A DNA stretch of 64,000 bases, from the IMG/VR virus record IMGVR_UViG_3300027759_000001; one strand, written 5' to 3'. Within the stretch, counting starts at the first letter, position 1. Each line of letters begins with the position of its first letter. Made by a program: the position numbers and the translations under genes. Of this stretch, positions 1,887 through 24,468 are shown in pieces. The stretch is from a virus (taxonomy: Duplodnaviria; Caudoviricetes). The notes beneath the pieces are model-generated. The model saw only the letters and a program-made list of their open reading frames with translations, made no database searches and was not told the origin of the DNA.

Positions 1887-1893
1887 TATTTAT
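1887..1893 (+). promoter_or_regulatory. TATTTAT motif, candidate late promoter
   Basis: 5 nt upstream of ATG 1899; the same heptamer recurs before many structural genes. Confidence 0.4.
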
Positions 1894-1898
1894 GGGAT

Positions 1899-2204
1899 AT
1901 GTTAATATTACAAATTGATGGTATAACAGGGGCTACCGCACCTTACAATTTATATGTCTGTGATGTCTATGGTAATCAATGTGCGGTTTTGGCAACAATA
2001 AATACTCCGATCCCACCATCAATAACATTAAACGTACCATCTCAATTTAATAATGTTCCAGCAATTGGTCTTAAAATCATTGATGTAAATGGTTGTGAAC
2101 AATTTGGAATCATCTATTGTGGAGATGTCAAGGGTAAAATATTCCAATCATCAGAGGTATTCTTATTCCAAGATGCAAATATTTATATTTTTGAGGACCA
2201 ATAA
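1899..2204 (+). CDS. Small Cys-containing probable structural protein (domain B)
   Basis: PYNLYVCD...C...KIIDVNGCE matches the N-terminus of 27337..29502 (PYNIYVCD...C...KIIDSRNCE). Confidence 0.6.
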   Translation: MLILQIDGITGATAPYNLYVCDVYGNQCAVLATINTPIPPSITLNVPSQFNNVPAIGLKIIDVNGCEQFGIIYCGDVKGKIFQSSEVFLFQDANIYIFEDQ

Positions 2205-2216
2205 TAACATTTTTAA

Positions 2217-2223
2217 TATTTAT
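2217..2223 (+). promoter_or_regulatory. TATTTAT motif, candidate late promoter
   Basis: 12 nt upstream of ATG 2236. Confidence 0.45.
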
Positions 2224-2235
2224 AAGTAAAAGGGG

Positions 2236-5200
2236 ATGCCGAATTATCAAAGACTTACGGATAGAGTATTAGCACCAAGTGTGTCTATAAATGATATTTT
2301 ACATATTGTTATTACAGGTGACACATCTCAAAACCCTGCTGGTTCATCTTATAAAGCCACATTAGAACAAGTTGCTTCAGTTATTGGTAGTGTTGGTACA
2401 TCAGGAACAAACGGTACAGATGGTACTTCAGGAACAAGCGGAGTGAATGGAACTTCAGGAACTAACGGATCAAGCGGAGCGAATGGAACTTCAGGAACTA
2501 ACGGTACTTCAGGAACTTCAGGAACTTCAGGGACGAGCGGAACTAACGGAACAAATGGAACGAATGGTACTAACGGAACTAATGGTACTTCAGGAACAAG
2601 CGGAGCAAACGGAACTTCAGGGACTAATGGAACAAGCGGAGCAAACGGAACTTCAGGAACTAATGGTACTAGTGGAACAAACGGAACGTCAGGAACTAAC
2701 GGAACAGATGGGTCTTCAGGTACAAATGGTACAAACGGAACGGATGGTACAAACGGAACTAATGGTACAAACGGAACGGATGGTACAGACGGAACAAGTG
2801 GTACTAATGGGTCTTCAGGGACTAACGGAACAAGTGGTACTAATGGGTCTTCAGGGACTAACGGAACAAGTGGTATATCGGGAGTAAATGGAACATCAGG
2901 TACAAACGGAACTTCAGGAACTAATGGTACAGATGGAACTTCAGGAACAAACGGAACAGACGGAACTTCAGGTACAAATGGAACAGATGGTACTTCAGGA
3001 ACAAACGGGACAGACGGAACTAGCGGAACAAATGGTACGGACGGTACTAACGGAACTAATGGTACGGACGGAACTTCAGGAACTAATGGTACGGACGGAA
3101 CTAACGGAACTAATGGTACGGACGGAACTTCAGGAACAAACGGGACAGATGGTACTTCAGGTACAAATGGTACAGACGGAACTAATGGAACAGATGGTAC
3201 TTCAGGAACTAATGGTACAGACGGAACTTCAGGTACAAATGGAACGGACGGAACTTCAGGTACAAACGGAACTGATGGAAGTAGTGGAACAAACGGAACA
3301 GACGGTACTTCAGGAACAAACGGAACAGACGGTACTTCAGGAACTAACGGAACAGATGGAAGTAGTGGTACAAACGGAACAGACGGTACTTCAGGAACAA
3401 ACGGAACAGACGGTACTTCAGGAACTAACGGAACTGATGGTACTTCGGGAACAAATGGTACTAGTGGAACAAATGGTACGAATGGTACATCAGGTACAAA
3501 TGGTACTTCAGGAACTAATGGTACTAATGGTACTAATGGAACTAACGGAACATCAGGTACCAATGGTACAAGTGGAACTAACGGAACGTCAGGAACAAAT
3601 GGCACAAACGGGACTTCAGGAACTAACGGTACTAATGGTACATCAGGAACAAATGGCACATCGGGAACAAACGGAACATCAGGAACTAACGGAACTGATG
3701 GTACTTCAGGAACTAACGGAACTGATGGGACTTCAGGAACTAACGGAACAGATGGAAGTAGTGGTACAAATGGAACGGATGGAAGTAGTGGTACAAATGG
3801 AACGGATGGGACTTCAGGAACAAATGGTACAGACGGCACTTCAGGAACAAATGGTACTGACGGAACTTCAGGGACAAATGGAACCAACGGTACGGACGGA
3901 ACTAATGGAACAGATGGTACTAGCGGAACAAATGGTACAGATGGAACAAACGGTACGGATGGGACTAGTGGCACAAATGGAACTGATGGTACTTCAGGCA
4001 CAAACGGAACAGACGGCACTTCAGGGACAAATGGTACAAATGGAACTGATGGTACTTCAGGTACAAACGGAACAGACGGCACTTCAGGGACAAATGGTAC
4101 AAATGGAACTGATGGGTCAAGCGGTACAAATGGAACTGATGGATCAAGCGGTACTAATGGAACTGATGGATCAAGTGGTACTAACGGCACTTCAGGAACT
4201 GACGGTACGGATGGGACTAGTGGAACAAATGGTACGGATGGAACTAGTGGAACAAATGGAACTGATGGTTCAAGTGGGACTAATGGAACGGATGGAAGTA
4301 GCGGAACAAATGGTACTGATGGTTCAAGTGGGACTAATGGAACGGATGGAAGTAGCGGAACAAATGGTACTGATGGTACTAGCGGAACAAATGGTACTAA
4401 CGGAACAGATGGAACTAGCGGAACAAATGGTACAGACGGAACTAATGGAACTAATGGTACAGACGGAACTAATGGAACAGATGGAAGTTCTGGAACAAAT
4501 GGAACGGATGGTACTTCAGGCACTAATGGAACGGATGGTACTTCAGGGACAAACGGAACAGATGGTACTTCAGGTACTAATGGAACAGATGGTACTTCAG
4601 GTACTAACGGAACGGATGGTACTTCAGGGACAAACGGAACAGATGGTACTAATGGAACGGATGGTACTAGCGGAACAAACGGAACAGATGGGACTTCAGG
4701 GACTAACGGTACTAATGGAACAAATGGTACTGACGGATCAAGTGGTACTAACGGAACAGATGGTACTTCGGGGACAAATGGAACAGATGGTACTAACGGA
4801 ACGGATGGTACTTCAGGGACAAACGGAACAGATGGTACTTCGGGGACAAATGGAACAGATGGTACTTCAGGGACAAACGGAACAGATGGTACTTCGGGGA
4901 CATCACCCTTAATTTGTACTCCATTCTTATCGGGAGATTATTATTTTCAATCGGTAGGCTCAATATACAACGGACCTTCATATCCAAATATGGCATGGGG
5001 TCCTGGTCAAACATTAAGTGTATACGCACCTGAAGGTGTTATAGAATATATGTTAATTACAGGTTATACCGCATCAACAGGTGCGATATCTGCGGTTATC
5101 ACATATTGTTCAAATGTTAATTACAAAACAACATCGGGTGTTAATCTTTGTCTTGTAGGTGAACAAGGAACATCTGGCACAAATGGTACTTCAGGGACAA

Positions 5201-8200
5201 ACGGAACAGATGGTACTAATGGAACTTCAGGGACTAACGGTACTGATGGTACGAATGGTACAGATGGTACAGATGGTACAGATGGTACTAGTGGTACAAA
5301 CGGTACGGATGGAACTAATGGTACCGATGGTACTAGCGGTACTAATGGAACAGATGGTACTAATGGTACTAGCGGTACTAATGGAACAGACGGAACTTCA
5401 GGTACTAATGGAACGGATGGTAGTTCAGGTACTAATGGTACAGATGGTAGTTCAGGTACTAATGGGACAAACGGTACAGACGGTACTTCAGGAACTAACG
5501 GTACAGATGGAACGTCAGGAACAAATGGTACAGACGGTTCAAACGGAACGGATGGTACTAGCGGAACAAATGGTACAGATGGAACAAGTGGGATATCTGG
5601 AGTAAATGGTACAAGTGGAACAAATGGTACTAACGGAACATCAGGAACTAACGGAACGGATGGTACTTCAGGAACAAACGGTACGGACGGAACCTCAGGA
5701 ACTAATGGTACAGATGGAACTTCGGGGACTAATGGTACAGACGGTACTTCAGGTACTAATGGAACTGACGGATCTTCAGGGACTAATGGAACAGATGGAA
5801 CATCAGGTACAAACGGAACAAATGGTACAAATGGAACAGATGGTTCAAGCGGAACTAATGGTACGGACGGAACTAATGGTACAAATGGAACAGATGGTTC
5901 AAGCGGAACGAATGGTACTGACGGAACAAATGGTACTGACGGAACCTCAGGTACAAACGGTACGGATGGAACTTCGGGTACTAATGGTACAGATGGTACA
6001 AACGGAACAGATGGTTCAAGCGGAACTAATGGTACGGACGGAACTAATGGTACAGATGGTACTAGCGGTACAAATGGTACTGATGGATCAAACGGTACGG
6101 ATGGAACTTCAGGTACTAATGGAACTGACGGAACAAGTGGTACTAATGGAACTTCGGGGACTAATGGAACAAGTGGTATATCGGGGGTAAATGGAACTTC
6201 AGGAACAAATGGTACTTCAGGTACAAATGGTACCAACGGAACAAATGGTACTTCAGGGACAAATGGTACTAACGGGACTTCAGGTACAAATGGTTCTTCA
6301 GGAACTAGCGGTGTTAATGGTATTTCAGGTGGAGCTGTTTATTTCTTTAACGAATCAGTAACACAAACACCATACAAAGAATTTTCACCTATACCGACAT
6401 CAGGGTCACAACAAACAGTTACGGTTACTATTGCGAATGGTGTAACATCAACTATTCAATCATATTTAACACCCTCAACTTATCCGAATGTATCAACCAT
6501 ACCTGCGGGAATTTGGTCTTTCTTCTTACACGCGTATAAAGAAAATAATAACGCATCTTTTGATATTTTTTGTGAAGTTTATTCAAGAACAACAGGTGGA
6601 ACGGAAACTTTATTATTTTCAACAGACCCAGCACCTGTAACAACAAATTCACCAAATCCATCAATGGTATTATCTGATGGATTTCAAGGAGGATTTTCAA
6701 TCAATACAACAGATAGGATATTAGTTAAAGTTCGAGCTACAAATACCTCAAATCAATCACATACAATTACTTTCGTAACCGAAGGTACAACTCATTATTC
6801 ATATGGTCAAACTACGTTAGGTGTAATTAATGGAACTAGCGGTACGAATGGAACCTCAGGTACAAATGGTACGAGCGGAACTAATGGTACTAACGGAACA
6901 TCAGGTACCAACGGAACATCTGGTACTAATGGTACAAACGGAACTAGCGGTACGAATGGTACATCAGGTACGAATGGTACCAACGGAACTAGCGGTACGA
7001 ATGGGACTTCAGGTACGAATGGAACAAATGGTACTTCAGGGACAAATGGTACTAACGGGACTTCAGGAACAAATGGATCAAGTGGAACTAATGGAACTTC
7101 GGGCACTAATGGAACATCGGGAACAAACGGTACGAATGGAACATCAGGTACGAACGGAACAAATGGAACGTCAGGAACAAATGGTACTTCAGGTACAAAT
7201 GGTACCAACGGAACAAACGGTACTTCAGGAACTAATGGTACGGACGGTACTTCAGGAACGAATGGTACTGATGGAACAAATGGTACTAGTGGAACGAATG
7301 GTACTAGTGGAACGAACGGAACCAATGGAACAAACGGTACTAGCGGAACTAACGGTACAAACGGAACTAACGGTACAAACGGAACTAATGGTACAGACGG
7401 AACTAGCGGTACAAATGGAACTAATGGAACTAATGGAACAAACGGAACTTCGGGAACTAATGGAACATCAGGAACTAATGGAACTAATGGAACTAATGGA
7501 ACGTCGGGAACAAATGGTACGAATGGAACTAGCGGTACTAACGGTACATCGGGTACAAATGGAACTAACGGAACATCAGGTACAAATGGTACTAACGGAA
7601 CATCAGGTACTAACGGAACATCAGGTACAAATGGAACCAACGGAACGTCAGGAACAAATGGAACCAACGGTACTAGCGGAACTAACGGGACTAATGGAAC
7701 ATCAGGAACAAACGGAACATCAGGTACAAATGGTACTAGTGGTGTAAGTGGAGCGTCTGGTACTTCAGGAACAAACGGAACAAATGGTACAAACGGAACC
7801 TCAGGAACTAACGGAACAAATGGAACTTCAGGAACAAATGGCACAAACGGAACCTCAGGAACTAACGGAACAAATGGAACTTCAGGAACTAACGGAACTA
7901 ACGGTACAAATGGAACTTCAGGTACAAATGGAACTTCAGGTACGAATGGGACATCAGGAACCAATGGAACCAACGGTACAAACGGAACCTCAGGAACTAA
8001 CGGTACTAATGGATCAAGCGGTACCAACGGGACATCAGGTACGAATGGAACTAATGGGACATCAGGTACGAATGGAACTAATGGGACATCAGGTACGAAT
8101 GGAACTAATGGGACAAACGGAACGTCAGGGACTAATGGTACCAATGGAACTTCAGGTACTAATGGAACAAACGGAACATCAGGAACAAATGGTACCAACG

Positions 8201-9651
8201 GAACATCAGGAACTAACGGGACTAGCGGTACTAATGGAACTAGCGGAACAAATGGTACATCGGGAACAAATGGTACCAACGGTACATCAGGTACGAATGG
8301 TACCAATGGAACTTCAGGAACCAACGGGACAAATGGTACATCGGGGACAAATGGTACATCGGGAACAAATGGTACCAACGGTACATCAGGTACGAATGGA
8401 ACAAACGGTACAAATGGAACTTCAGGTACTAACGGAACCAATGGCACTAATGGTACAAGTGGAACAAATGGAACGAATGGTACTAATGGAACCTCAGGAA
8501 CAAATGGAACTAACGGGACTAATGGAACTTCAGGAACAAATGGAACCAATGGTACGAGCGGAACTAATGGGACGAATGGTACTTCAGGTACAAATGGTAC
8601 GAATGGTACTTCAGGTACAAATGGTACGAATGGAACAAATGGTTCAAGTGGTACTAACGGTACTAACGGTACTAACGGAACTAATGGAACGAACGGAACC
8701 TCAGGTACTAATGGAACATCGGGAACAAATGGAACAAATGGAACAAATGGAACATCAGGGACTAACGGAACGAATGGGACATCAGGAACCAATGGAACTT
8801 CTGGAACTAACGGTACGAATGGTACTAACGGAACCTCAGGTACCAACGGAACAAATGGTACTTCAGGTACGAACGGAACTAACGGAACATCAGGAACAAA
8901 CGGTACAAATGGTACAAATGGTACAAATGGTACAAACGGAACAAATGGTACTTCGGGAACAAACGGTACTTCAGGAACGAATGGTACTAACGGAACTTCA
9001 GGAACAAATGGTACCAACGGAACAAATGGTACCAACGGAACTAATGGAACCTCAGGGACTAATGGAACTAACGGAACAAATGGTACCAATGGAACCTCAG
9101 GTACTAACGGAACTAACGGAACTAACGGAACAAATGGTACGAGCGGAACTAATGGTACAAACGGAACATCAGGAACAAATGGAACATCAGGAACGAACGG
9201 TACAAGCGGATCATCACCTGTAGTACCAGGATTAGATAATGAAGTATTAACGTCAGACGGTTCGGGTAATATAGTTGCGGAAACTGATTTTACATATAAC
9301 GGTACTGATAATATATTAACACTAACAAGAAGTTACGATAAGGTTAATACTAAAACGGCAACAAATATTTCAACAACAACAACCATTGACTCATTTACAA
9401 CTAACTTTGGATGTTCGGCAATATTTGAATATTGTATAACAAGTACTAGTGGTCGTAAACGTATGGGTCAAGTATTTGCAACTTGGGACAATACAAGTGC
9501 GGTATTTACAGATATTTCATCCCCCGATTTAAATGCATCAACTGCTGCAGTAACTTGGAAAGTAAGTGTAGTATCGGGTAATGTTGAGTTAGTTGCTAAC
9601 ATTAGTGGTGCTACTTGGGACATATTAGTTGCAACAAGAATCATATTCTAA
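2236..9651 (+). CDS. Giant Gly-X-Y repeat fibre protein 1 (2471 aa): three G-T-(N/S/D) segments separated by two globular domains, with N- and C-terminal domains
   Basis: Gly at every third residue over 2395-4905, 5167-6327 and 6832-9216. Non-repetitive domains at about 4906-5157, 6328-6831 and 9217-9651. Fibre role inferred from context. Confidence 0.8.
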   Translation: MPNYQRLTDRVLAPSVSINDILHIVITGDTSQNPAGSSYKATLEQVASVIGSVGTSGTNGTDGTSGTSGVNGTSGTNGSSGANGTSGTNGTSGTSGTSGTSGTNGTNGTNGTNGTNGTSGTSGANGTSGTNGTSGANGTSGTNGTSGTNGTSGTNGTDGSSGTNGTNGTDGTNGTNGTNGTDGTDGTSGTNGSSGTNGTSGTNGSSGTNGTSGISGVNGTSGTNGTSGTNGTDGTSGTNGTDGTSGTNGTDGTSGTNGTDGTSGTNGTDGTNGTNGTDGTSGTNGTDGTNGTNGTDGTSGTNGTDGTSGTNGTDGTNGTDGTSGTNGTDGTSGTNGTDGTSGTNGTDGSSGTNGTDGTSGTNGTDGTSGTNGTDGSSGTNGTDGTSGTNGTDGTSGTNGTDGTSGTNGTSGTNGTNGTSGTNGTSGTNGTNGTNGTNGTSGTNGTSGTNGTSGTNGTNGTSGTNGTNGTSGTNGTSGTNGTSGTNGTDGTSGTNGTDGTSGTNGTDGSSGTNGTDGSSGTNGTDGTSGTNGTDGTSGTNGTDGTSGTNGTNGTDGTNGTDGTSGTNGTDGTNGTDGTSGTNGTDGTSGTNGTDGTSGTNGTNGTDGTSGTNGTDGTSGTNGTNGTDGSSGTNGTDGSSGTNGTDGSSGTNGTSGTDGTDGTSGTNGTDGTSGTNGTDGSSGTNGTDGSSGTNGTDGSSGTNGTDGSSGTNGTDGTSGTNGTNGTDGTSGTNGTDGTNGTNGTDGTNGTDGSSGTNGTDGTSGTNGTDGTSGTNGTDGTSGTNGTDGTSGTNGTDGTSGTNGTDGTNGTDGTSGTNGTDGTSGTNGTNGTNGTDGSSGTNGTDGTSGTNGTDGTNGTDGTSGTNGTDGTSGTNGTDGTSGTNGTDGTSGTSPLICTPFLSGDYYFQSVGSIYNGPSYPNMAWGPGQTLSVYAPEGVIEYMLITGYTASTGAISAVITYCSNVNYKTTSGVNLCLVGEQGTSGTNGTSGTNGTDGTNGTSGTNGTDGTNGTDGTDGTDGTSGTNGTDGTNGTDGTSGTNGTDGTNGTSGTNGTDGTSGTNGTDGSSGTNGTDGSSGTNGTNGTDGTSGTNGTDGTSGTNGTDGSNGTDGTSGTNGTDGTSGISGVNGTSGTNGTNGTSGTNGTDGTSGTNGTDGTSGTNGTDGTSGTNGTDGTSGTNGTDGSSGTNGTDGTSGTNGTNGTNGTDGSSGTNGTDGTNGTNGTDGSSGTNGTDGTNGTDGTSGTNGTDGTSGTNGTDGTNGTDGSSGTNGTDGTNGTDGTSGTNGTDGSNGTDGTSGTNGTDGTSGTNGTSGTNGTSGISGVNGTSGTNGTSGTNGTNGTNGTSGTNGTNGTSGTNGSSGTSGVNGISGGAVYFFNESVTQTPYKEFSPIPTSGSQQTVTVTIANGVTSTIQSYLTPSTYPNVSTIPAGIWSFFLHAYKENNNASFDIFCEVYSRTTGGTETLLFSTDPAPVTTNSPNPSMVLSDGFQGGFSINTTDRILVKVRATNTSNQSHTITFVTEGTTHYSYGQTTLGVINGTSGTNGTSGTNGTSGTNGTNGTSGTNGTSGTNGTNGTSGTNGTSGTNGTNGTSGTNGTSGTNGTNGTSGTNGTNGTSGTNGSSGTNGTSGTNGTSGTNGTNGTSGTNGTNGTSGTNGTSGTNGTNGTNGTSGTNGTDGTSGTNGTDGTNGTSGTNGTSGTNGTNGTNGTSGTNGTNGTNGTNGTNGTDGTSGTNGTNGTNGTNGTSGTNGTSGTNGTNGTNGTSGTNGTNGTSGTNGTSGTNGTNGTSGTNGTNGTSGTNGTSGTNGTNGTSGTNGTNGTSGTNGTNGTSGTNGTSGTNGTSGVSGASGTSGTNGTNGTNGTSGTNGTNGTSGTNGTNGTSGTNGTNGTSGTNGTNGTNGTSGTNGTSGTNGTSGTNGTNGTNGTSGTNGTNGSSGTNGTSGTNGTNGTSGTNGTNGTSGTNGTNGTNGTSGTNGTNGTSGTNGTNGTSGTNGTNGTSGTNGTSGTNGTSGTNGTSGTNGTNGTSGTNGTNGTSGTNGTNGTSGTNGTSGTNGTNGTSGTNGTNGTNGTSGTNGTNGTNGTSGTNGTNGTNGTSGTNGTNGTNGTSGTNGTNGTSGTNGTNGTSGTNGTNGTSGTNGTNGTNGSSGTNGTNGTNGTNGTNGTSGTNGTSGTNGTNGTNGTSGTNGTNGTSGTNGTSGTNGTNGTNGTSGTNGTNGTSGTNGTNGTSGTNGTNGTNGTNGTNGTNGTSGTNGTSGTNGTNGTSGTNGTNGTNGTNGTNGTSGTNGTNGTNGTNGTSGTNGTNGTNGTNGTSGTNGTNGTSGTNGTSGTNGTSGSSPVVPGLDNEVLTSDGSGNIVAETDFTYNGTDNILTLTRSYDKVNTKTATNISTTTTIDSFTTNFGCSAIFEYCITSTSGRKRMGQVFATWDNTSAVFTDISSPDLNASTAAVTWKVSVVSGNVELVANISGATWDILVATRIIF
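2395..9216 (+). repeat. 9-nt-period coding repeat (Gly-Thr-Asn/Ser/Asp) in three blocks of 279, 129 and 265 triplets
   Basis: Block lengths of 2511, 1161 and 2385 nt are exact multiples of 9; synonymous codons are scrambled between units. Confidence 0.9.
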
Positions 9652-9704
9652 AATCAATCTTTCATTTAATTTTTCTTTTTAGATAATAAAGTTTACTTAA
9701 CTAA

Positions 9705-9711
9705 TATTTAT
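9705..9711 (+). promoter_or_regulatory. TATTTAT motif, candidate late promoter
   Basis: 56 nt upstream of ATG 9768. Confidence 0.35.
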
Positions 9712-9767
9712 TTAATAACAAATAAATCAAAGGATTTTCTTTTGGATAGGGAAAAAAGAAAAAATAG

Positions 9768-12700
9768 ATGGCAAATGAATTCATAGCCCGTAATGGGGTC
9801 AAATCATTAGGTGGTGTTACATTTCCATATACTGGAGTGAGCACCACATACACAATTAATTCGGATAATTATCTAATTGATTGTACTAGCGGGACATTTA
9901 ATGTCACCCTTCCAACTTCTGCAGGTATTGCAGGACAAATCTTTGTAATTAAAAATAGTGGATCAGGAACAATAACTCTTGCAACAACAGGAGGTCAAAC
10001 TATAGATGGAAGTTCAACAAAAACATTAACACAATATGGATCAATAACCGTACAAAGTGACGGTTCAAATTGGGATATTGCGGGATCTGACGGAACGTCA
10101 GGAACTAACGGCACTAGCGGAACATCAGGAACAAATGGTACCAACGGTACTAATGGAACATCAGGTACAAATGGAACTAACGGTTCAAGTGGAACTAACG
10201 GTACAAATGGGACATCGGGAACCAATGGAACTAACGGTACAAACGGTACTTCAGGAACAAATGGTACAAATGGAACAAACGGAACGTCAGGTACAAACGG
10301 TACTAGCGGAACGAATGGTACTAACGGAACAAATGGTACGAGTGGAACTAACGGAACTAATGGTACATCAGGTACAAATGGTACTTCAGGAACTAATGGG
10401 ACTAACGGAACTTCAGGAACTAATGGTACTTCAGGAACTAACGGTACGAATGGAACTAATGGGACTTCAGGTACGAATGGTACTAATGGAACATCAGGGA
10501 CTAACGGAACAAATGGAACTTCAGGTACTAATGGAACTAATGGTACTAATGGAACTTCAGGTACTAATGGAACTAATGGTACTAATGGAACGTCGGGTAC
10601 TAATGGAACCAACGGAACATCGGGAACCAATGGGACTAACGGTACAAATGGAACATCAGGTACAAATGGAACATCAGGTACAAATGGAACTAACGGATCT
10701 TCAGGAACCAATGGAACTAATGGTACAAACGGAACTAGCGGTACGAATGGAACTTCAGGAACAAATGGAACATCAGGAACTAACGGCACAAATGGTACTA
10801 ATGGATCATCAGGAACTAATGGAACGTCAGGAACAAATGGAACCAACGGTACAAATGGTACTTCAGGAACTAACGGAACAAATGGTACAAATGGAACTTC
10901 AGGGACTAACGGAACTTCAGGAACTAATGGTACCAACGGAACATCGGGTACTAATGGAACTAATGGTACTAACGGAACAAATGGAACATCGGGTACTAAC
11001 GGGACTAATGGTACAAACGGAACTTCAGGAACTAACGGAACAAATGGTACGAGTGGGACCAATGGAACTAACGGTACTTCAGGAACTAACGGAACAAATG
11101 GTACGAGTGGGACCAATGGAACAAATGGTACTTCAGGAACTAATGGTACGAGCGGGACTAATGGAACAAATGGAACATCAGGTACTAACGGTACAAACGG
11201 TACTTCAGGAACGAATGGAACTTCAGGTACTAATGGAACTAATGGTACAAACGGAACATCAGGAACCAACGGTACAAATGGTACCAACGGAACTAGCGGA
11301 ACAAATGGAACTAACGGAACTAACGGAACATCAGGTACTAATGGAACTAATGGAACATCAGGAACAAATGGTACCAACGGAACTAGCGGAACAAATGGGT
11401 CTTCAGGTACGAATGGTACCAACGGAACTAGCGGTACAAATGGAACAAATGGAACTAACGGTACAAATGGCACGAGTGGGACCAATGGAACAAACGGTAC
11501 TTCAGGTACAAATGGAACTAATGGTACAAATGGAACAAATGGTACGAGCGGGACTAATGGAACTTCAGGTACAAACGGAACATCAGGAACGAATGGAACT
11601 AATGGAACTAATGGAACTTCAGGTACAAACGGAACCTCAGGAACGAATGGAACTAATGGAACTTCAGGTACTAACGGAACCTCAGGAACAAATGGTACGA
11701 ATGGATCATCAGGTACAAACGGAACGAATGGAACATCAGGAACAAATGGTACCAACGGAACTAGCGGAACAAACGGTACTTCAGGAACAAACGGTACTTC
11801 AGGAACGAATGGTACCAACGGAACTAGCGGTACTAATGGAACAAGCGGCACAAATGGAACGAATGGTACAAATGGAACCAACGGAACATCAGGTACCAAC
11901 GGAACTAATGGTACAAACGGAACTAGCGGACTTTCTGGTGTTGATGGTACTGATGGAACATCAGGAACAAACGGAACTAGCGGAACTAATGGTACCTCAG
12001 GAACAAGAGGAACTAGCGGAACAAATGGTACAAATGGTACCAACGGAACTAGCGGAACAAATGGTACCAACGGAACAAATGGTACTAATGGAACTTCGGG
12101 AACAAATGGCACAAATGGTACTTCAGGAACAAATGGTACTAACGGAACCTCAGGTACTAATGGGACTTCAGGAACTAATGGAACAAATGGCACATCAGGA
12201 ACAAATGGTACTAACGGAACTTCAGGTACAAATGGAACATCTGGGACAAACGGTACAAATGGTACTAACGGAACATCAGGAACGAATGGTACAAATGGAA
12301 CTTCAGGAACGAATGGTACAAACGGAACTAATGGAACAAATGGAACGAATGGAACCTCAGGTACGAATGGTACTTCAGGAACGAATGGAACTAACGGTAC
12401 TAATGGAACTAGCGGTACAAATGGTACGAACGGAACTAGCGGTACAAATGGTACTTCGGGAACAAATGGAACAAACGGAACTTCAGGTACAAATGGTACT
12501 AACGGAACTTCAGGTACAAATGGAACATCTGGGACAAACGGTACAAATGGTACTAACGGAACATCAGGAACAAATGGTACAAATGGAACTTCAGGAACGA
12601 ATGGTACAAACGGAACTAGCGGGACTAATGGAACTTCAGGAACGAATGGTACAAACGGAACTAATGGAACAAATGGAACGAATGGAACCTCAGGTACTAA

Positions 12701-15700
12701 CGGAACGAACGGAACATCAGGAACTAATGGAACCAATGGTACAAATGGAACAAATGGCTCAAGTGGTACAAACGGAACTTCAGGTACTAACGGAACATCG
12801 GGTACAAACGGAACTAACGGCACTTCAGGTACTAATGGAACTAGCGGTACTAACGGAACAAATGGAACTTCAGGAACAAATGGTACTAACGGAACGAATG
12901 GTACGAGCGGGACCAATGGTACATCAGGGACAAACGGAACGAATGGAACTAATGGCACTAGCGGTACAAATGGAACAAATGGTACTAACGGGACAAATGG
13001 TTCAAGTGGAACTAATGGAACTTCGGGCACTAACGGAACAAACGGTACTAGCGGAACGAATGGTACTAGCGGAACGAATGGAACAAATGGAACGTCAGGA
13101 ACTAATGGTACGAACGGAACAAATGGTACATCAGGTACTAATGGAACTAGCGGAACGAATGGTACAAATGGAACTAGCGGTACCAACGGGACTAATGGTA
13201 CAAACGGAACTTCAGGTACCAACGGAACTAATGGTACTAGCGGAACTAATGGTACTAACGGAACATCGGGAACGAATGGGACAAATGGAACTTCAGGTAC
13301 AAACGGAACATCAGGGACTAATGGAACAAATGGAACTAGCGGTACGAATGGAACCAATGGTACAAATGGTACTTCAGGAACTAATGGTACTAATGGAACG
13401 AACGGAACCAATGGTACGTCAGGGACAAATGGAACTTCAGGCACAAACGGGACTAACGGATCATCAGGGACCAATGGAACGAATGGTACAAGCGGTACTA
13501 ACGGAACTAGTGGGACAAACGGAACAAATGGTTCAAGTGGTACCAACGGTACTAATGGTACTAGCGGTACGAATGGAACTAGCGGTACAAACGGAACATC
13601 GGGAACGAATGGTACTAACGGTACAAATGGTACTTCAGGGACAAACGGAACAAATGGTACTAGTGGAACTAATGGAACCAACGGTACTAGCGGAACAAAC
13701 GGAACTAGCGGAACAAACGGAACCTCAGGAACAAATGGAACAAATGGTACTAGCGGAACTAATGGAACGTCAGGAACTAACGGAACAAATGGTTCAAGTG
13801 GAACCAACGGTACGAATGGTACTTCAGGTACAAATGGAACTAGCGGCACAAATGGAACTAACGGAACTAGCGGTACTAATGGTACTTCAGGAACAAATGG
13901 CACAAACGGAACTAATGGAACAAATGGTTCAAGTGGTACCAACGGTACAAATGGAACATCCGGAACTAATGGTACTTCAGGGACAAACGGAACAAACGGT
14001 ACGAATGGTACTAACGGAACAAGTGGAACTAACGGAACAAGTGGGACGAATGGTACTAATGGAACATCAGGAACCAACGGAACTTCTGGAACTAATGGAA
14101 CAAATGGTACTAGTGGAACTAACGGTACTAATGGTTCAAGTGGAACGAATGGTACTAATGGAACTTCAGGTACTAACGGTACTAATGGAACATCAGGAAC
14201 AAACGGAACTTCGGGAACCAATGGAACAAACGGTACATCAGGTACTAACGGAACAAGTGGGACGAATGGTACTAATGGAACTAGCGGAACGAATGGAACA
14301 TCAGGTACGAATGGTACAAACGGAACTTCGGGTACAAACGGAACATCGGGTACGAATGGAACGTCAGGAACGAACGGAACCAATGGCACATCGGGAACTA
14401 ATGGTACTAATGGTACATCAGGGACGAATGGAACAAATGGTACTAACGGAACTAGCGGAACAAACGGAACTAGCGGAACGAATGGTACGAACGGATCTTC
14501 AGGCACTAATGGTACATCGGGGACAAATGGAACCAACGGTACAAATGGAACTAATGGAACCAACGGGACTTCAGGCACAAATGGGACTAGCGGAACGAAT
14601 GGAACTAACGGAACGTCAGGTACAAATGGAACAAACGGAACTAATGGTACTAACGGTACAAGTGGTACAAATGGAACCTCAGGTACAAATGGAACAAACG
14701 GAACTAATGGTACTAACGGTACAAGTGGTACAAATGGGACTTCAGGTACAAACGGTACGAATGGTACTAACGGAACATCAGGTACAAACGGTACTAATGG
14801 TACTAGCGGTACGAATGGAACTAACGGCACATCAGGGACTAACGGAACTTCAGGTACGAATGGAACAAATGGTACGAGCGGGACCAATGGAACTAACGGA
14901 ACTTCAGGTACGAATGGAACATCAGGAACTAACGGAACTAGCGGAACGAATGGTACAAATGGAACTAGCGGAACAAATGGAACATCAGGTACAAATGGTA
15001 CCTCAGGAACAAGAGGAACTAGCGGAACAAATGGTACAAACGGAACCAATGGTACGAGCGGAACAAATGGAACTAATGGAACATCAGGAACTAACGGAAC
15101 ATCCGGTACGAATGGAACAAATGGTTCAAGCGGAACTAACGGAACTAACGGATCATCAGGTACAAACGGAACTTCGGGAACCAATGGTACAAACGGTACA
15201 TCAGGAACTAATGGAACTTCAGGTACAAATGGAACTAACGGTACTAATGGTACGTCAGGTACAAATGGAACCAATGGTACATCAGGTACTAACGGAACTT
15301 CAGGTACTAATGGAACTAATGGTACTAATGGAACAAACGGTACTTCAGGAACAAATGGAACGAATGGTACTAACGGAACTAGTGGAACAAATGGTACTAA
15401 CGGAACAAACGGTACGAATGGGACTTCAGGAACTAACGGCACAAGCGGGACAAATGGTACTAACGGTACAAGCGGGACAAATGGAACGTCAGGAACTAAT
15501 GGTACGAACGGAACAAATGGTACATCAGGTACTAATGGAACTAGCGGAACGAATGGTACAAATGGATCTTCAGGAACAAATGGAACAAATGGATCTTCAG
15601 GAACAAATGGAACAAATGGAACAAATGGATCTTCAGGAACAAATGGAACAAATGGATCTTCAGGTACGAACGGCACATCAGGAACTAATGGTACAAATGG

Positions 15701-16700
15701 TACTTCAGGAACAAATGGTACTTCAGGAACAAATGGTACGAGCGGGACCAATGGAACAAATGGAACCAATGGAACCAATGGAACATCAGGTACTAATGGC
15801 ACTTCAGGTACCAACGGTACAAATGGTACCAACGGAACTAGCGGCACAAATGGTACTAATGGATCATCAGGTACTAACGGAACTTCAGGGACAAATGGCA
15901 CTAACGGAACATCAGGAACCAACGGTACAAATGGAACTTCAGGTACAAATGGCACTAATGGTACTAGCGGAACAAACGGTACAAATGGATCATCAGGTAC
16001 GAATGGAACTTCAGGTGTTAGTGGAGCGTCAGGTACTTCAGGTACTAATGGTACAAATGGATCATCAGGAACTAACGGAACATCGGGTACTAATGGAACA
16101 GGATTTAATTCAATATCACCAACAACAGATAATAATGTGTTAACTGCTAATGGAACCGCAAATTCAGCGAACTCAGAACCAAACTTAACATTCAATGCTT
16201 CAACAAACTTATTAACAGTAACGGGTAATGAAACTGTTAGTGGTATTTTAACTAGTCAATCTTCGGGATCATTAGTTGCAAATGGTAAATGGTCTTTAAT
16301 GGGTAACCCTACAACTTTGTTAACCTCAAATAGTTATTATGGTGAAGTCGTAACATTTGGGGGGGCAGGTGCAACCACCCAATTTTATATGTATTATTGG
16401 TCTAGTGGAAGTACGTGGGAACTTACTGACGCCAACGCGGCGGCAACATCAAGGGGGTTAATATCAATGGCAATAGATACTAGTTTCAGTGGAGGGATGA
16501 TGTTAAGAGGATATGTATATAATTCAACATGGAACTGGACACCAGGAGCAACATTATATTTAAGTGCCTCTGGCGCTGCCGGGGTTATAACATCAACACA
16601 ACCTTCAGGTAGTGCGGATATTGTAAGAGTTGTTGGATATGCCATTAGTGCCGATTTAATTTACTTTAATCCTTCGCAAGATTGGATTGAGTTAGCATAA
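9768..16700 (+). CDS. Giant Gly-X-Y repeat fibre protein 2 (2310 aa): tail-fibre-type N-terminal domain, one uninterrupted G-T-(N/S) segment, DUF2190/cement-like C-terminal domain
   Basis: N-terminus [10 protein letters not shown]...TLP...IKNSG...IDG...SDGSNW is typical of phage fibre proteins. Repeat spans 10083-16094. C-terminus ...GATLYLS...[27 protein letters not shown]. Confidence 0.8.
10083..16094 (+). repeat. 9-nt-period coding repeat, 668 Gly-X-Y triplets (mostly GTN, GTS, GSS)
   Basis: 6012 nt equals 668 x 9; no globular interruption in the translation. Confidence 0.9.
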
Positions 16701-16711
16701 TACTTATAGTA

Positions 16712-17551
16712 ATGGCAATAATAACTAAATTAAATGACGTTTTATGTGTTAACATTTCAAAAATTGATAATGTTTTAAAAAGTAATGCGAAATTTTTTGA
16801 TGATAATACTTTTTGCCCAACACCAACACCTACACCAACAACTCCAGTTGGGACACCAACACCAACACCTACAAGAACATTAACTCCAACACCAACATTA
16901 ACAAGAACATTAACTCCAACACCAACAAATACACCTACATTAACTCAGACATTAACTCCAACACCAACAAATACACCTACATTAACTCAGACATTAACTC
17001 CAACTCCAACAAATACACCAACATTAACTCAGACATTAACTCCAACTCCAACAAATACACCAACATTAACAAGAACATTAACTCCAACTCCAACAAATAC
17101 ACCTACATTAACAAGAACATTAACACCAACGCCAACAAATACTCCTACATTAACAAGAACATTAACTCCAACACCAACAAATACTCCTACATTATCACAA
17201 ACATTAACTCCAACTCCAACAAATACGCCAACACCAACACAAAGATTAAGTTCAACGCCAACACCAACACCAACTCCAACTCTAACACCAACTACACCAT
17301 GTGGTAAAGATTGTTGTTATATAGAACTTTGTTATAGTACAATTGACTGTACGGACGCTTGTCAATGTAATCAAACTGTTAATGTATACCTATCTATTTG
17401 TAAATATACCGCATGTAGATTATCAAACGCATTTGGAATATTTGTAGATGACTCATGTACAACACCTGCGGCAGATGGTTACTATTCTAATACTGTTGAT
17501 TGTTATTATTGGGATGGGTCTTCCTCTTTAACATATCAAGGTCCTTGTTAA
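16712..17551 (+). CDS. Mucin-like protein: short N-terminal domain, Thr/Pro repeat, 12-Cys C-terminal domain
   Basis: Translation shows about 8 copies of TPTLT(R/Q)TLTPTPTN followed by a Cys-rich end. Confidence 0.75.
16817..17299 (+). repeat. 42-nt tandem repeat encoding a 14-aa Thr/Pro unit (about 8 copies plus degenerate flanks)
   Basis: Unit close to acacctacattaactcagacattaactccaacaccaacaaat. Confidence 0.85.
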
Positions 17552-17586: not shown

Positions 17587-20500
17587 TTATTTTCTGTTAT
17601 CTATATAGAGGATTACTTCACTGTAGTACTCAATAAAATGGTCATTCCACAGATCCCATTTAATATTAACTCCATCCACAGAGAAAACTTGTATGTTATC
17701 AAACTGAGTTAAGATATTATCTCTAAAGTTTCTAAATTCTACTTTATGTTCTGGTGTTCTTAAATGCCATTCACCAACAATTTTTTTAACATTTTTTTTA
17801 ATGAAATCTAAATTTTCGGGTTTAAACATTTCGTATTCACCACCCTCACAATCTGTTTTAACAAAATCAATTCTATTTAATCCGTAAAGTTTAATAAACT
17901 TATCAAATGTAATAGACTCCATATGTGTTTCACCTCCAAATAATTGGTCGTGTTCAATCACACCATTAAAATTTGAAAGTCCTTTATTAATGTGAGTTAC
18001 AGGATGACCCAATGTATTTCTAATTAATGTTGTGAATTCACTTTCACTTGGTTCAATACAAAATACGTGTTTTGGTTTTTTATGTAGGATTGAATATGTA
18101 AAAGGACCAACACTTGATCCAATATCTAAAACGATATCCCCTTCTTCTACTTCAAAGAATTGTTCGTATAATCTCTGTTCAAATATTTCATTATACATTG
18201 CGTGTTTGTGATAATTACCATTATCGTCACCATTATTCATCCATCCCCAATCAAACTTAGGTAATGGATTACTATTGAGTAATTTATTGATTTCACCAAT
18301 AACGACTTCCGAAGTAATTTCTTTTGTACATTCAAACATCCGATCCGTATTCTTATGTAGTGGACACCAATTCCAATCACCGGCATCTAATCTATCTGAG
18401 TTAAAACATCCGTGACAAACACTTTCATTAATAACTCTATATGTATCTAATGTTGTTTCCGCCCATTTTTCACTAAATCCTGAAATCAAAACGACAGGTA
18501 ATTTACAAGCCCAAGCCAACCAAGATAATCCTGATCCGAGACCAATAAAGAACTCACATTCGGATAGGTCGTCAATTACTTCTTGTAAGTTACCTCCTTT
18601 AAAAATGGTTACACCTTTAGGGTAATGGTTATTCATGTATCCGTCACCTTCTTTAGAGTAGATCATACATTCATAACCTAAAGTATTAAGGTGGTCAACA
18701 ACTGCTTGCCATCCGTCAGGGTTGTTCCAATATTTTGATTGTGCGGTTGAGTGAAACCCAATACCAACTTTTTTCTTTTTAGGTGTGTTAGGTAATTTTA
18801 ATAGTGGTCTAACTTCTTCATAATCTAAACCTAAGATATCCGTTGCCGTTTTTTGTAATGGCATTTTCTTAAAATCAAATGGGTGTTTGTTATTATCGTA
18901 AACCCCTTCACTTGTATAATGCCAACCTAACCTATATTGTGCGTGTATATTAGTTACCAATTCACCAGGTTCAACAAACTCAATATCAGGGTATTGATCT
19001 TTAAATAAACTATTAAGGAAGGTTGATACTATAAGTTGGCAACCATGTTTTTTTCTAAATACCTCACAATAAGGAACCCAAGCCATTGTGTCACCTAATG
19101 ATTTTGATCCAAAAGAAATATATACTCTCTTATCTTTTAGATCTAATGTCTCATCATAAATTACTTCACCATTTTCTTCTACGGTTGTTCTCCATTTAAT
19201 AAAGTATTCTTTATTTAATTTAACCCAACTATTGATTGGTAATTCATTTTGATATGATATTTCATTTTTATCATCATAATATTTAATATTCAATTTGTTT
19301 TCTGTTGTCCCTTGTACTTCAAAATAAGGTTGGGTAACATAATGTCTAACAAAAGTATAATCTTTGGTTAATGGTTTGTTTTGGGTAATGTTAAGATTTG
19401 TAACTGCGTTATAAAAATTCAATAAATCTTCACCAAATGTATTATCGGGTAATATTTTATAAACATCTTTATTTTCAATAAGTTCAACCAATTGTTTTGA
19501 TATGGTTTTAACATCACCTTCTATTGGTGTTATATATCCATTAAACATACCCATGTATTGTGGTAAATCTCTTGTAAGGATTTTCATTCCATAATTGATA
19601 GATTCTCTAACAACCAACGGATTACATTCCCAAGTTGAGTTAAACATTAATACATCACAAGCCATCATGAATTTTTCAACGTCATTACGCTCACCCCATA
19701 CTTTTACGTTTGATGGTAAATTATTCATTATTGGACCCCAATAGTCTTCAAAGTTTGGAGCTTGGTTCCCAATAAAATGAAATTGGATGTCAGGGTTTGA
19801 TTCAATTAATTCTCTTGCAACCTCAACCCCTTCACCTTGATTTTTACCACTTGTCCATAACCCAACATTAAGTACGTGAGTTTTAAACATATCCAAACCA
19901 AGTTCTTCTCTTACTACAGTTTTTTTAATTAATGGGACTTGATTAAAATCACCATATATTTCATACTCCTCTAAAATTTTAGTTACCTTATTCTCAATTG
20001 GGTATAACGATAAAAACTTCATTGGTGTTTCATTTAAAAACGTTTCCTTTAAATGATAAGGGGTGACAAAACAATATGATTCAGGATTGAACTTTTTATG
20101 TGTTTGCGGGTTAAACCAAACATTATGACAAGTCTCAACCATTTTCCAAGTCCTATCATTTGAATAAAGTTGATTTAACAATGGTAGTGGGATTTTATTA
20201 AAACTTTCAAATCCTTCTAACATTTCTTCCGAATGAACAATATCAATATTATTGTTTTTAATAATATCAATTAACTCATATTTTCTTTTTGTGTCAGTTG
20301 TATCACCTAAACTAAAAAAATGACCTTCACCCAATAGATCAATTATTTTATCTCTTTGAACAACATATGTATTACTAAACTGAGAAAACTCAACCAAAAA
20401 TATTTCAATTTGGTCTTTGAATTTTTGAAGTTCTTGAATTCTTTTTAATACGAATTGAGGCATTCCACCTGTTGATAGGTGCGGTGTAAGGTACAATAAT

Positions 20501-23541: not shown

Positions 23542-24468
23542 ATGAAAAAAGTATGTTTAGATGTATTAGGATGTAGAGCGTTAGGTGATACTTTAGCAGT
23601 AACACCAACTTTAAGAAAACTTTATAATTCTTACGGTAAAAAAATATCTGTTGCGACTCATCACCCTTATCTATTTTTAGATAACCCATATGTTGATAAC
23701 ATCTATACCGATGTAACCGATGAAATAAAAGAAACTCACGAAGTATTCGTATCGTTTAATATTGGTTATCATCCAAATGGTATTTGTTATAAACATAACG
23801 CAATGGACATTAGACAATTCCATGCGATTAATCTTGGTTTTATGTTATCCAAAGATGAGATGGAAATGGATTACATTCCAAAACCAATTGACACAATAGA
23901 AGGTTTACCTGAAAAATATGTTTTAATTCATCCCGTGCAAAATTGGGACTCAAGAACTTGGGATGCAAAGAAATGGCAAATGTTAACCAAACTATTAAAC
24001 GAAAGAGGTATTGCCGTTGTGTCTATTGGTAAAGATTCGTCTGAACTTGGTGGATCTAATGTGGATAAACCTGTATTCAATTTCAAAATTGATTTAGGAT
24101 TAAACTTAATGAATAATACAGATATGGATCAGGCTTGGTACCTCATCCAAAATAGTATGTGTTTTATTACAATGGATTCAGGACTATTACATTTGGCGGG
24201 AACAACCGACGCAGAGATAATTCAATTAGGTAGTTCAATTAATCCTGAGTTTAGATCACCATATAGAAAAGGTTCACAAGAATATAAATATCATTACGTG
24301 GTTGGTGGTTGTGGTTTGAATTGCGCTTCCGACATGAGGTATGGTGTTAGAGAATGGCAATCAATACAAGGTATACCATCACTAGTTAATTGTTTGGAAA
24401 GAAAAGAAACCTTTGAGTGTCACCCAACAATTTTTGCGGTTTATAATAAAGTGTTAGAAATAGTTTAG
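23542..24468 (+). CDS. GT9-like (ADP-heptose transferase fold) glycosyltransferase
   Basis: LGDTLAVTP, YVLIHP...SRTW...W, FITMDSGLLHLAG, C-terminal Cys cluster. Confidence 0.75.
   Translation: MKKVCLDVLGCRALGDTLAVTPTLRKLYNSYGKKISVATHHPYLFLDNPYVDNIYTDVTDEIKETHEVFVSFNIGYHPNGICYKHNAMDIRQFHAINLGFMLSKDEMEMDYIPKPIDTIEGLPEKYVLIHPVQNWDSRTWDAKKWQMLTKLLNERGIAVVSIGKDSSELGGSNVDKPVFNFKIDLGLNLMNNTDMDQAWYLIQNSMCFITMDSGLLHLAGTTDAEIIQLGSSINPEFRSPYRKGSQEYKYHYVVGGCGLNCASDMRYGVREWQSIQGIPSLVNCLERKETFECHPTIFAVYNKVLEIV

Follow-up and report, generated by a model that had tools for sequence, protein, structure and literature searches.

The analysed window is a 64,000-nucleotide stretch of DNA, best explained as coming from an uncultured freshwater (lake) myovirus of approximately 290 kb. 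Two very long open reading frames lie side by side on its plus strand, fibre A (2236..9651, 2471 aa) and fibre B (9768..16700, 2310 aa), with translations as previously described. Their reading frame has start codons and globular end domains with homologues elsewhere, and codon variation in the repeats is concentrated at third positions. Other long open reading frames in the region, such as 2349-4523 (minus strand) and 10057-16143 (plus strand), were rejected as genes and considered by-products of the repeats. Seven nucleotides 5' of the fibre A ATG (2217..2228, plus strand) there is a TATTTATAAGTA motif containing a T4-late-promoter-like TATAAGTA. With up to one mismatch it has 9 matches in the window against 2.3 expected, and from sequence alone it is putatively promoter-like. 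The upstream open reading frames (1-1368, 1365-1865 and 1899-2204) gave no family match. The 650-aa product of 54936-56888 had no family match either and is a candidate tape measure by position only, coming after the tube and hub genes. A megablast search of window positions 47000-62000 against cultured phages returned no match.

Fibre A consists of an N-terminal segment of 50 aa with no family match, three collagen-like blocks, two globular inserts and a C-terminal beta-sandwich, all encoded on the plus strand. Block 1 (aa 51-890; 2386..4905) contains 280 triplets in an ordered GTN-GTD-GTS cycle and is followed by globular insert 1 (aa 891-974; 4906..5157), for which no family match was found. 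Block 2 (aa 975-1367; 5158..6336) has 131 triplets. Between blocks 2 and 3 lies globular insert 2 (aa 1368-1532; 6337..6831), which is 98.8% identical to a segment of a fused 3726-aa fibre in another record (G006). Block 3 (aa 1533-2327; 6832..9216, 265 triplets) is B-like, with Asp nearly absent. Together the three runs hold 676 triplets (GTN 333, GTS 188, GTD 108, GSS 28), with Thr at X in 629 of them. The C-terminal domain (aa 2328-2471; 9217..9651) is a predicted beta-sandwich (model pLDDT 80) with 44-80% identity among orthologues. Its model matches 9f4a (Z 11.2, rmsd 2.1 over 104 aa), 6e1r (Z 10.0) and 7xy1 (Z 9.3), which are C-terminal domains of phage baseplate, tailspike and tail-fibre proteins. 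Judged by the model, the domain has a tailspike/tail-fibre-type fold.

Fibre B, also on the plus strand throughout, is simpler. Its N-terminal domain (aa 1-105; 9768..10082) is a Phage_depo_C-like beta-sandwich: the match to PF25692 (E 7e-5) scores 23.6 bits, slightly below the cut-off of 25, and the domain also matches phrog_37034 (E 9e-9) and phrog_20556, 'baseplate protein' (E 2e-5). The collagen-like run (aa 106-2112; 10083..16103) comprises 669 uninterrupted, Pro-free triplets (GTN 436, GTS 202, GSS 22), 642 of which have Thr at X. The C-terminal tip domain (aa 2113-2310; 16104..16700; model pLDDT 71) also has orthologues. A counterpart of it (41% identity, tblastn) forms the tip of a 578-aa protein of immuto, a cultured Flavobacterium myophage that encodes this protein, annotated as a tail fibre, within its tail gene cluster. 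For the tip domain, Foldseek found nothing in the PDB at E <= 0.001. The top 12 structure matches of its model are capsid decoration proteins, with borderline scores (Z 8.8, 8.4, 8.0) of a kind common for unmatched models; because of this likeness a head-fibre location of fibre B is also a candidate. Both proteins are most likely virion fibres, specifically tail-fibre-type adhesins.

The triplet counts (676 in A and 669 in B as assembled, the exact number depending on the assembly) agree with the preliminary description of two Gly-X-Y megafibres in which X is almost always Thr (93-96%) and Y is Asn, Ser or Asp. The repeats are indeed proline-free, with zero Pro in any Gly-X-Y run of either protein. 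They also belong to the collagen type by Pfam (Collagen, PF01391: E 5e-46 and 154.7 bits for A, E 3e-54 and 181.1 bits for B, cut-off 27.2), as had been proposed. Gly occupies every third residue over long runs in A and B, and the run of B is unbroken. The earlier length estimate of ~570 nm holds arithmetically, since 2007 residues of fibre B at 0.286 nm each give ~574 nm. No stabilising imino acids or charged pairs were found at X and Y of the repeats, and of the 2310 residues of fibre B just 20 are acidic and 10 basic. Both of the usual triple-helix stabilisers are therefore missing. Orthologous fibre pairs from independent assemblies contain between 200 and >3300 repeat residues, and all are Pro-free with Ser or Thr at X. 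A and B have nearly the same number of triplets, which is treated as a coincidence because relatives do not keep this equality (346 versus 566 in G003, 783 versus 852 in G002).

Immediately downstream of fibre B (16712..17551, plus strand) is a gene for a 279-aa protein (phrog_15511) with a mucin-like (T-P-T-x)n tract and a Cys-rich C-terminal domain. Its position between fibre B and a glycosyltransferase is conserved. A search for the Cys-rich domain, made without a positive control, found no match in G002, G007, G008, G010 and G011. The glycosyltransferase gene (17587..21246, minus strand) is convergent to the fibres and encodes a 1219-aa enzyme of four domains: GT2 (aa 4-130), GT4 (aa 446-597), a TibC/Aah-type domain (aa 655-988; 18283..19284) and an FkbM methyltransferase (aa 1039-1176). 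The region also contains a second, GT9-type (heptosyltransferase-like) enzyme of 308 aa (23542..24468, plus strand; PF01075 E 1.7e-15) with weak matches to TIGR04414 and to LPS heptosyltransferase models, several more Thr/Pro-rich proteins and many further glycosyltransferases. The nearest record, G001, is without this region. No GT60-like enzyme was found in five fibre-bearing fragments, from records that are 16-31% complete.

By its sequence the TibC/Aah-type protein O-heptosyltransferase domain is a true member of the family of bacterial autotransporter heptosyltransferases (BAHT). It scores 288.7 bits against the equivalog model TIGR04414 (curated cut-off 200) and E 2.6e-72 against TibC (4RAP), and nine relatives of the enzyme score 270-291 bits against TIGR04414. 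Hallmarks of the BAHT family are heptosyl transfer to protein Ser and a dodecameric ring. The roles of the catalytic Asp, the sugar-binding residues and the iron-finger Cys have been established in TibC (PMC4358343). The catalytic base Asp110 corresponds to D719 in an SLGD motif and the iron-finger Cys339/342/358/370 to C944/C947/C961/C973, all invariant in 7 phage orthologues. The sugar-binding residues Thr226, Lys230 and Trp305 are kept as T834, K838 and W909, and likewise in the 7 orthologues. Arg286 is V890 in the window enzyme and Val or Thr across all phage orthologues, so the donor sugar may not be ADP-heptose. The substrates known for BAHT are not collagen-like repeats but beta-helical autotransporters, which are glycosylated on Ser (PMC4358343). 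No autotransporter substrate lies next to the phage enzyme, whose neighbours are the collagen-like fibres and the PT-rich protein. No paper linking TibC-type enzymes with phages was found in the literature searched. Phage BAHT seems to be widespread among lake phages; IMG/VR contains 317 relatives.

The gene order of fibre(s), small mucin-like protein and convergent BAHT is kept in six other records. Among the best 80 of the 317 phage BAHT loci, 55 have a G-T/S-X collagen-like open reading frame within 10 kb, versus 0/80 control loci centred on the sheath gene in the same clade. At the whole-genome level, seven genomes at least 93% complete were compared. BAHT and fibre are both present in four of them (G013-G016), while the searches of G007 and G008 found neither BAHT nor collagen. 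Phage immuto has no BAHT, and its B-type tail fibre is without Gly-X-Y repeats. Because G007 and G008 retain the GT60-like enzyme and mucin-like proteins without BAHT, BAHT tracks collagen fibres specifically. On bacterial contigs, collagen-like neighbours occur only beside the closest BAHT relatives (45-51% identity), and 0/37 more distant ones have such a neighbour.

The favoured reading, to which we assign a probability of roughly 0.55, is that A and B are long collagen-type virion fibres O-glycosylated by the adjacent TibC/Aah-type enzyme. It starts from what is observed directly (sequence anatomy, enzyme family membership, conserved synteny and co-occurrence). Since a TibC relative adjoins the fibres, they are probably O-glycosylated on Ser/Thr and not at Asn sequons, and would carry an O-linked sugar coat on these residues. 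Each chain carries ~670 Gly-(Thr/Ser)-(Asn/Ser/Asp) triplets, flanked on either side by a globular head. From the sequence we infer that three such chains wind into a collagen-type triple helix ~0.57 micrometres long, with two hinge domains in fibre A and none in the unbroken fibre B; substrate, sugar and virion location are inferred in the same way. In the host cytoplasm the TibC/Aah-type domain would add a heptose-like sugar to hydroxyl groups of Ser/Thr in the repeats; GT2 and GT4, fused to it, would lengthen the glycan, and the FkbM domain would methylate it. The sugar would substitute for the missing Pro and charge stabilisers, the glycan coat and polar side chains would stiffen and shield the fibre, and with such a fibre the phage would have a wider capture radius in dilute lake water. 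A stronger version is put forward tentatively, as possible but not probable. In it, O-linked heptose-based Ser/Thr glycans, added along the chain by a ring-shaped TibC-type enzyme, replace Pro/Hyp as the triple-helix stabiliser and produce rigid, protease-shielded fibres of >0.5 micrometre, the longest known on any phage.

The fibres could also be real but unglycosylated, with the TibC-like enzyme modifying the PT-rich mucin-like protein, other mucin-like virion proteins or a host protein, although this is doubtful. The small mucin-like protein, conserved beside the enzyme in the records with this gene order, may itself be the true substrate, the region contains several other Thr/Pro-rich proteins and many other glycosyltransferases, and 25 of the best 80 of the 317 phage BAHT loci have no collagen-like open reading frame detectable within the available flanks. 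However, complete relatives with neither BAHT nor collagen still carry phrog_15511 mucin-like proteins and the GT60-like enzyme, and the feature that co-varies with BAHT is the collagen-like open reading frame (55/80 versus 0/80).

Glycosylated or not, the repeats might form something other than a collagen helix, namely a polyglycine-II bundle, another beta-type rod or a flexible brush resembling glycosylated mucin or antifreeze glycoprotein. The lack of both known stabilisers fits such structures. Thr, Asn and Ser are reportedly not strong triple-helix formers in host-guest peptide studies, which weighs against a triple helix. These structures are nonetheless improbable. Although the DNA has diverged, not one of the 669 triplets of fibre B departs from Gly at every third position, and the same holds in all orthologues, whereas a disordered brush has no need for a strict Gly register. 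As the repeat DNA has diverged and varies mainly at third positions, the retained Gly points to selection on the protein register. A single-chain polyglycine-II bundle requires turns and the uniform repeat has none. The Pfam Collagen match also argues for the collagen type, and globular domains at both ends suit a registered trimer.

The preliminary description placed emphasis on the hundreds of N-X-S/T sequons in the repeats. These include 354 of the 374 Asn in fibre A and 443 of the 460 in fibre B (95-96%), and bacteria do have cytoplasmic N-glycosyltransferases that use N-X-S/T (HMW1C/NGT family). That they are functional N-glycosylation sites is nonetheless very improbable. The sequons are forced by the Gly-X-Y register: with Thr or Ser at X, any Asn at Y necessarily falls in a sequon, as the description had itself partly anticipated. 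Ser takes the place of Asn in orthologues, and in the L118-L127 orthologue of fibre A only 14 of 783 triplets are GTN (GSS 340, GTS 285, GTD 91). PglB-type enzymes require Asp or Glu at -2; position -2 of each sequon is Gly, so the D/E-X-N-X-S/T motif is absent. Among the window open reading frames scanned with Pfam, in the flanks and the glycosylation island, no oligosaccharyltransferase (STT3/PglB) and no GT41 was detected. The suggestion that the fibres would need glycosylation thus gains strong genomic support from the adjacent TibC/Aah-type O-glycosyltransferase, but its Asn-sequon form does not stand.

It is extremely unlikely that the extreme fibre length is an assembly artefact produced by expansion or chimerism inside the repeats: although Logan contigs of four freshwater runs cover every part yet break inside the repeats with none bridging them, and the fused 3726-aa fibre of G006 may be a recombination product or a chimera, no exact repeat in 2236-16700 exceeds 90 bp (the longest one), all 101-mers are unique, giant orthologues of >2000 aa recur across many contigs, and ten separate metagenome assemblies give an orthologue of fibre A of 2553 or 2556 aa. 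The repeat DNA copies are only ~65-70% alike (Tandem Repeats Finder, TRF, match between copies 60-79%), and 98% of the 51-mers in 2236-16700 are unique. On 1500-17800 the Logan contigs provide identical short pieces in every bin. The apparent 'joints' there are considered repeat noise because their sides are only 20-29 letters long.

The closest counterparts of the proposed glycosylated collagen-type phage fibres are the TibC-TibA and Aah-AIDA-I systems of E. coli (BAHT; TIGR04414; PDB 4RAP/4RB4; PMC4358343). The phage enzyme belongs to the same family, scoring higher than the curated cut-off and retaining the catalytic Asp together with the iron-finger Cys4. In both settings the enzyme gene adjoins a long, highly repetitive Ser/Thr-rich surface protein, and the bacterial enzymes act in the cytoplasm, where phage proteins are made. 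In contrast to these systems, the phage neighbour is a Gly-X-Y collagen-like fibre and not a beta-helical autotransporter, and the enzyme is phage-carried, fused to GT2, GT4 and methyltransferase domains, and has Val/Thr in place of Arg286.

A resemblance in architecture is found in BclA of the Bacillus anthracis exosporium nap, a collagen-like Thr-rich protein with a globular C-terminal trimer domain that forms hair-like filaments and is O-glycosylated on Thr with methylated sugars. Its repeats number tens to ~90 triplets, most of them Gly-Pro-Thr, which contains Pro and places Thr at Y. The phage fibres, unlike BclA, are Pro-free with Thr at X, have ~670 triplets and are accompanied by another glycosyltransferase family. 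Riftia cuticle collagen and Gly-Pro-Thr(Gal) peptides demonstrate that a triple helix can do without hydroxyproline when O-glycosylated Thr stabilises it, but in them Thr occupies Y and Pro occupies X, whereas the phage repeats have Thr at X and are Pro-free.

Collagen-like fibres already known from phages and prophages have short runs with Pro and charged residues, and we know of no dedicated glycosyltransferase associated with them. Gly-X-Y repeats flanked by trimerising fibre domains occur in phage tail-fibre proteins among the collagen-like proteins of E. coli O157 prophages (PMC3368898). The streptococcal phage protein HylP is similar, with Gly-X-Y repeats in a tail-fibre protein between trimerising phage fibre domains. 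Glycosylation of virions by the virus itself also has precedents. In mycobacteriophages the acceptors are reportedly short tails at the C termini of capsid and tail-tube proteins, and in giant viruses they are the fibrils of eukaryotic viruses, with different enzyme families in each case; to our knowledge, none pairs a collagen-like substrate with a BAHT. For mycobacteriophage virions (Freeman et al. 2023, cited in PMC12619734) and the glycosylated fibrils of giant viruses (PMC9614988), it has been predicted or shown that glycosyltransferases encoded by a virus decorate its own structural proteins.

If the stronger version of the favoured reading is true, the fibres would represent a new class of BAHT substrate and a new mode of collagen stabilisation. 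A Pro-free, sugar-stabilised triple helix would broaden the sequence rules of collagen and, if real, would open a way to make designer collagen-like materials in bacteria. If the TibC-type enzyme modifies the fibres of the phage that encodes it, this would add a second case of phage virion glycosylation, unrelated to that of the mycobacteriophages. It would bear on how phages find their hosts, resist proteases and grazers, and are recognised. With fibres half a micrometre long, the adsorption cross-section estimated for jumbo phages in dilute waters would also change.

Fibre A (2236-9651, plus strand, 2471 aa) and the adjoining fibre B (9768-16700, plus strand, 2310 aa) translate into proteins that are nearly all Gly-X-Y. 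In fibre A the triplets form three runs (aa 51-890, 975-1367, and 1533-2327; 676 triplets in total) separated by two globular inserts. Fibre B has a single uninterrupted run of 669 triplets (aa 106-2112). Position X is Thr in 93% (fibre A) and 96% (fibre B) of triplets, the remainder being mainly Ser, and position Y is Asn, Ser or Asp in both fibres. Counting of the translations found no proline within any of the Gly-X-Y runs of the two fibres. Both match Pfam Collagen (E-values of 5e-46 for fibre A and 3e-54 for fibre B), so translations, triplet counts and family match all agree with the preliminary description of two proline-free Gly-Thr-Asn fibre ORFs. Beyond what the preliminary description covers, the Y residues are ordered non-randomly. 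In fibre B (10083-16103) two Ser triplets adjoin in 5 cases where 77 would be expected, and the spacing between Ser triplets is 2-4 triplets. In fibre A, blocks 1-2 (2386-6336) follow a GTN-GTD-GTS cycle (ND 67, DS 58, SN 84, SD 1), and block 3 is B-like, with Asp nearly absent. This order could mirror the spacing of glycan sites; it is absent from Ser-rich orthologues.

The repeat exists at the level of the protein and not of the DNA. Copy-to-copy matches reported by TRF were just 60-79%, the longest exact repeat across the entire 14.5 kb fibre region was 90 bp, and 98% of 51-mers and all 101-mers were unique. Synonymous-codon shuffles gave longest repeats of 30-50 bp, so the residual DNA repetition is only slight. 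In the Gly-Thr-Asn frame, which also encodes the conserved end domains, sequence variation falls on third codon positions, and the repeat generates the region's further long ORFs as by-products. In 10 separate metagenome assemblies a fibre A orthologue of 2553 or 2556 aa precedes a second, 3122-aa fibre; further records yield lengths of 1234, 1715, 2396, 2702, and 3726 aa. Exact matches to all parts of the fibre region came from short Logan contigs of four freshwater runs, but none of them spans the repeats, and the counts of 676 and 669 triplets are therefore those of the assembly. The 3726-aa protein is a single fused fibre in a related record (G006, 1734-12911) with 1104 triplets. Over one segment it shares 98.8% identity with fibre A insert 2 (6337-6831), but its C-terminus is B-type and only 50% identical; it is the product of either recent recombination within the collagen repeats or a chimeric assembly.

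The end domains favour an assignment of both proteins as tail fibres. The C-terminal model of fibre A (pLDDT 80) aligns with the beta-sandwich found at the C-termini of phage baseplate, tailspike, and tail-fibre proteins (best Z 11.2 with an rmsd of 2.1 over 104 residues; the next two matches have Z 10.0 and 9.3). The N-terminal domain of fibre B matches a 'baseplate protein' PHROG and, slightly below the cut-off, the related Pfam family Phage_depo_C. Its C-terminal domain is 41% identical to the tip of the annotated tail fibre of the cultured Flavobacterium phage immuto, encoded within the tail gene cluster. The model of this same domain (pLDDT 71) also resembles capsid decoration proteins with borderline Z of 8.0-8.8, and head fibres anchored via a decoration-like trimer are a possible alternative.

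Directly after fibre B lies a small mucin-like protein (16712-17551, plus strand, 279 aa) that has an extended Thr-Pro tract and ends in a Cys-rich part. It is followed by a convergent 1219-aa enzyme (17587-21246, minus strand) composed of GT2, GT4, a GT9-like region and an FkbM methyltransferase. By its sequence, the GT9-like region is a genuine representative of the bacterial autotransporter O-heptosyltransferases (BAHT), the family of TibC and Aah: it scores 288.7 bits against TIGR04414 (cut-off 200) and aligns to the sequence of the TibC crystal structure with an E-value of 2.6e-72. Residue roles were taken from the TibC structure paper (PMC4358343). The catalytic Asp110 corresponds to D719 of the phage enzyme; Thr226, Lys230, and Trp305 correspond to T834, K838, and W909; and the four iron-finger cysteines are C944, C947, C961, and C973. 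All eight are invariant across seven phage orthologues. The position of TibC Arg286 is occupied by Val or Thr in the phage enzymes, so the donor sugar may differ. In the closest near-complete relative, G013 (IMGVR_UViG_3300034117_001582, 292 kb), whose enzyme domain is 95% identical to that of the window, the TibC-like domain (177087-178097) lies in a 1497-aa open frame, vs 1219 aa here, and a second, weaker TibC-like match nearby has an in-frame TGA.

Six other records share the gene order of fibre(s), small mucin-like protein and convergent enzyme, and their enzyme domains are 42-77% identical. All five fibre-bearing fragment records tested scored above cut-off for both Pfam Collagen and TIGR04414, and all four complete relatives with the enzyme (G013-G016) have an adjoining collagen-like ORF. 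The complete relatives G007 and G008 have neither the collagen-like fibre nor the TibC-like enzyme; they retain a GT60-like enzyme and phrog_15511 mucin-like proteins. The tail fibre of immuto (578 aa) has the fibre B-type tip without Gly-X-Y repeats, and no TibC-like enzyme was found in this phage. A wider sample comprised the best 80 of 317 enzyme-centred IMG/VR loci, with 80 sheath-centred loci of the same clade as controls. Proline-free G-T/S-X ORFs (at least 150 repeat residues, within 10 kb) were present at 46 of these best 80 enzyme loci and shorter ones at another 9, vs none of the 80 control loci. Among bacterial contigs, a collagen-like neighbour was seen only beside the closest relatives of the phage enzyme (45-51% identity), in three of the five cases. 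All are MAG contigs, the collagen-flanked ones from Rickettsiaceae, Bacteroidetes, and Methylococcales bins, and could represent phage or prophage DNA. Such a neighbour was absent from all 37 more distant bacterial homologues; in Acetobacter, Burkholderia, Paraburkholderia, and similar genomes, TibC-like genes (33-40% identity) have none within 10 kb. Synteny and co-occurrence together indicate that the TibC-type enzyme follows collagen-like fibres specifically, and the GT60-like enzyme follows mucin-like proteins.

Nearly every Asn of the fibres falls within N-X-S/T (354 of 374 in fibre A, 443 of 460 in fibre B). As the preliminary description remarked, this frequency follows partly from the periodicity: with Thr or Ser fixed at X, every Asn at Y falls in N-G-T/S by construction. 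Asn and Ser exchange freely among orthologues (one fibre A orthologue has GSS 340, GTS 285, GTD 91, and GTN only 14); the conserved features are the Gly, a hydroxyl-bearing X, a small and polar Y, and the absence of proline. Position -2 of the sequons is Gly throughout, vs the Asp/Glu needed by PglB-type enzymes, and the Pfam scans run on window ORFs turned up neither an STT3 nor a GT41 domain. N-glycosylation of the repeats is therefore unlikely. The guess that the fibres need glycosylation gains from the adjoining, co-occurring TibC-type enzyme, but for Ser/Thr and not for the Asn sequons; O-glycosylation is the better-supported version of that idea.

In the proposed mechanism, an end domain would bring three chains into register to form a triple helix, the TibC-like domain would add a glycan, and the fused domains would extend and methylate it. 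Since the fibres lack proline and charge pairs, this glycan is the obvious candidate for stabilising and shielding them; Riftia collagen and BclA, with their glycosylated Thr, provide the precedent. At 0.286 nm per residue a triple-helical fibre B would measure about 574 nm, in line with an earlier estimate of about 570 nm, and fibre A 240 + 112 + 227 nm with two hinges. The tail would be about 100 nm long (0.15 nm per residue) if the 650-aa protein at 54936-56888, which has no family match, is the tape measure.

A GT60-like polypeptide GlcNAc-transferase (29565-30812; PF11397, E-value 3e-72), which shares 44-47% identity with enzymes from the jumbo phages XacN1, Xoo-sp13, CM1, and RAS14, adjoins a 721-aa Thr-X mucin-like protein (27337-29502). 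This pair is kept in relatives without collagen fibres and TibC-like enzyme and so looks like a separate glycosylation system. A 101-aa protein (1899-2204) resembles the N-terminus of the same mucin-like protein. Long Thr-Pro tracts occur in two small proteins (1365-1865 and 16712-17551). The latter has a Cys-rich C-terminal domain of 53-63% identity in relatives, its position is always between fibre B and the glycosyltransferase, and it may act as a substrate, chaperone or fibre accessory. Three lectin-type proteins (22251-27181; LamG, SPRY/fibrinogen-like, and legume-lectin-like) are encoded within the glycosylation island; the N-terminal 93 residues of the proteins at 24498 and 26084 are 54% identical to each other. 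Allowing one mismatch, there are 9 copies of the motif TATTTATAAATA vs 2.3 expected (2217-2228, 38311-38322, and 56934-56945 among them); the motif includes the T4 late-promoter core TATAAATA, and in two cases, fibre A and a 1680-aa protein, it ends 7 nt before the start codon. Also phage-encoded are an LCIB-type beta-carbonic anhydrase (38347-39438; PF18599, E-value 2e-27) and an Fe/Mn superoxide dismutase (43846-44934) whose N-terminus is extended by 165 aa.

The source of the window is a contractile-tailed phage, with genes for sheath (49053-52394), tube (53426-53914), baseplate hub (54000-54764), PolB (39552-42335), and an SNF2 helicase. IMG/VR contains 244 relatives of its sheath, the near-complete relatives range from 257 to 344 kb, and all runs containing window DNA are freshwater or lake metagenomes. 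The 'moraphages' described in 2025 (PMC12619734) are freshwater phages of 200-307 kb that have four core glycosyltransferase families and are predicted to infect Bacteroidota. Each element by itself has precedents, be it collagen-like stretches within phage fibres, BAHT enzymes or glycosylation of phage virions, and no paper tying TibC-type enzymes to phages was found in the library searched. What is distinctive here is the size of the fibres, their arrangement as a tandem pair, and the Asn-rich variant of the repeat.
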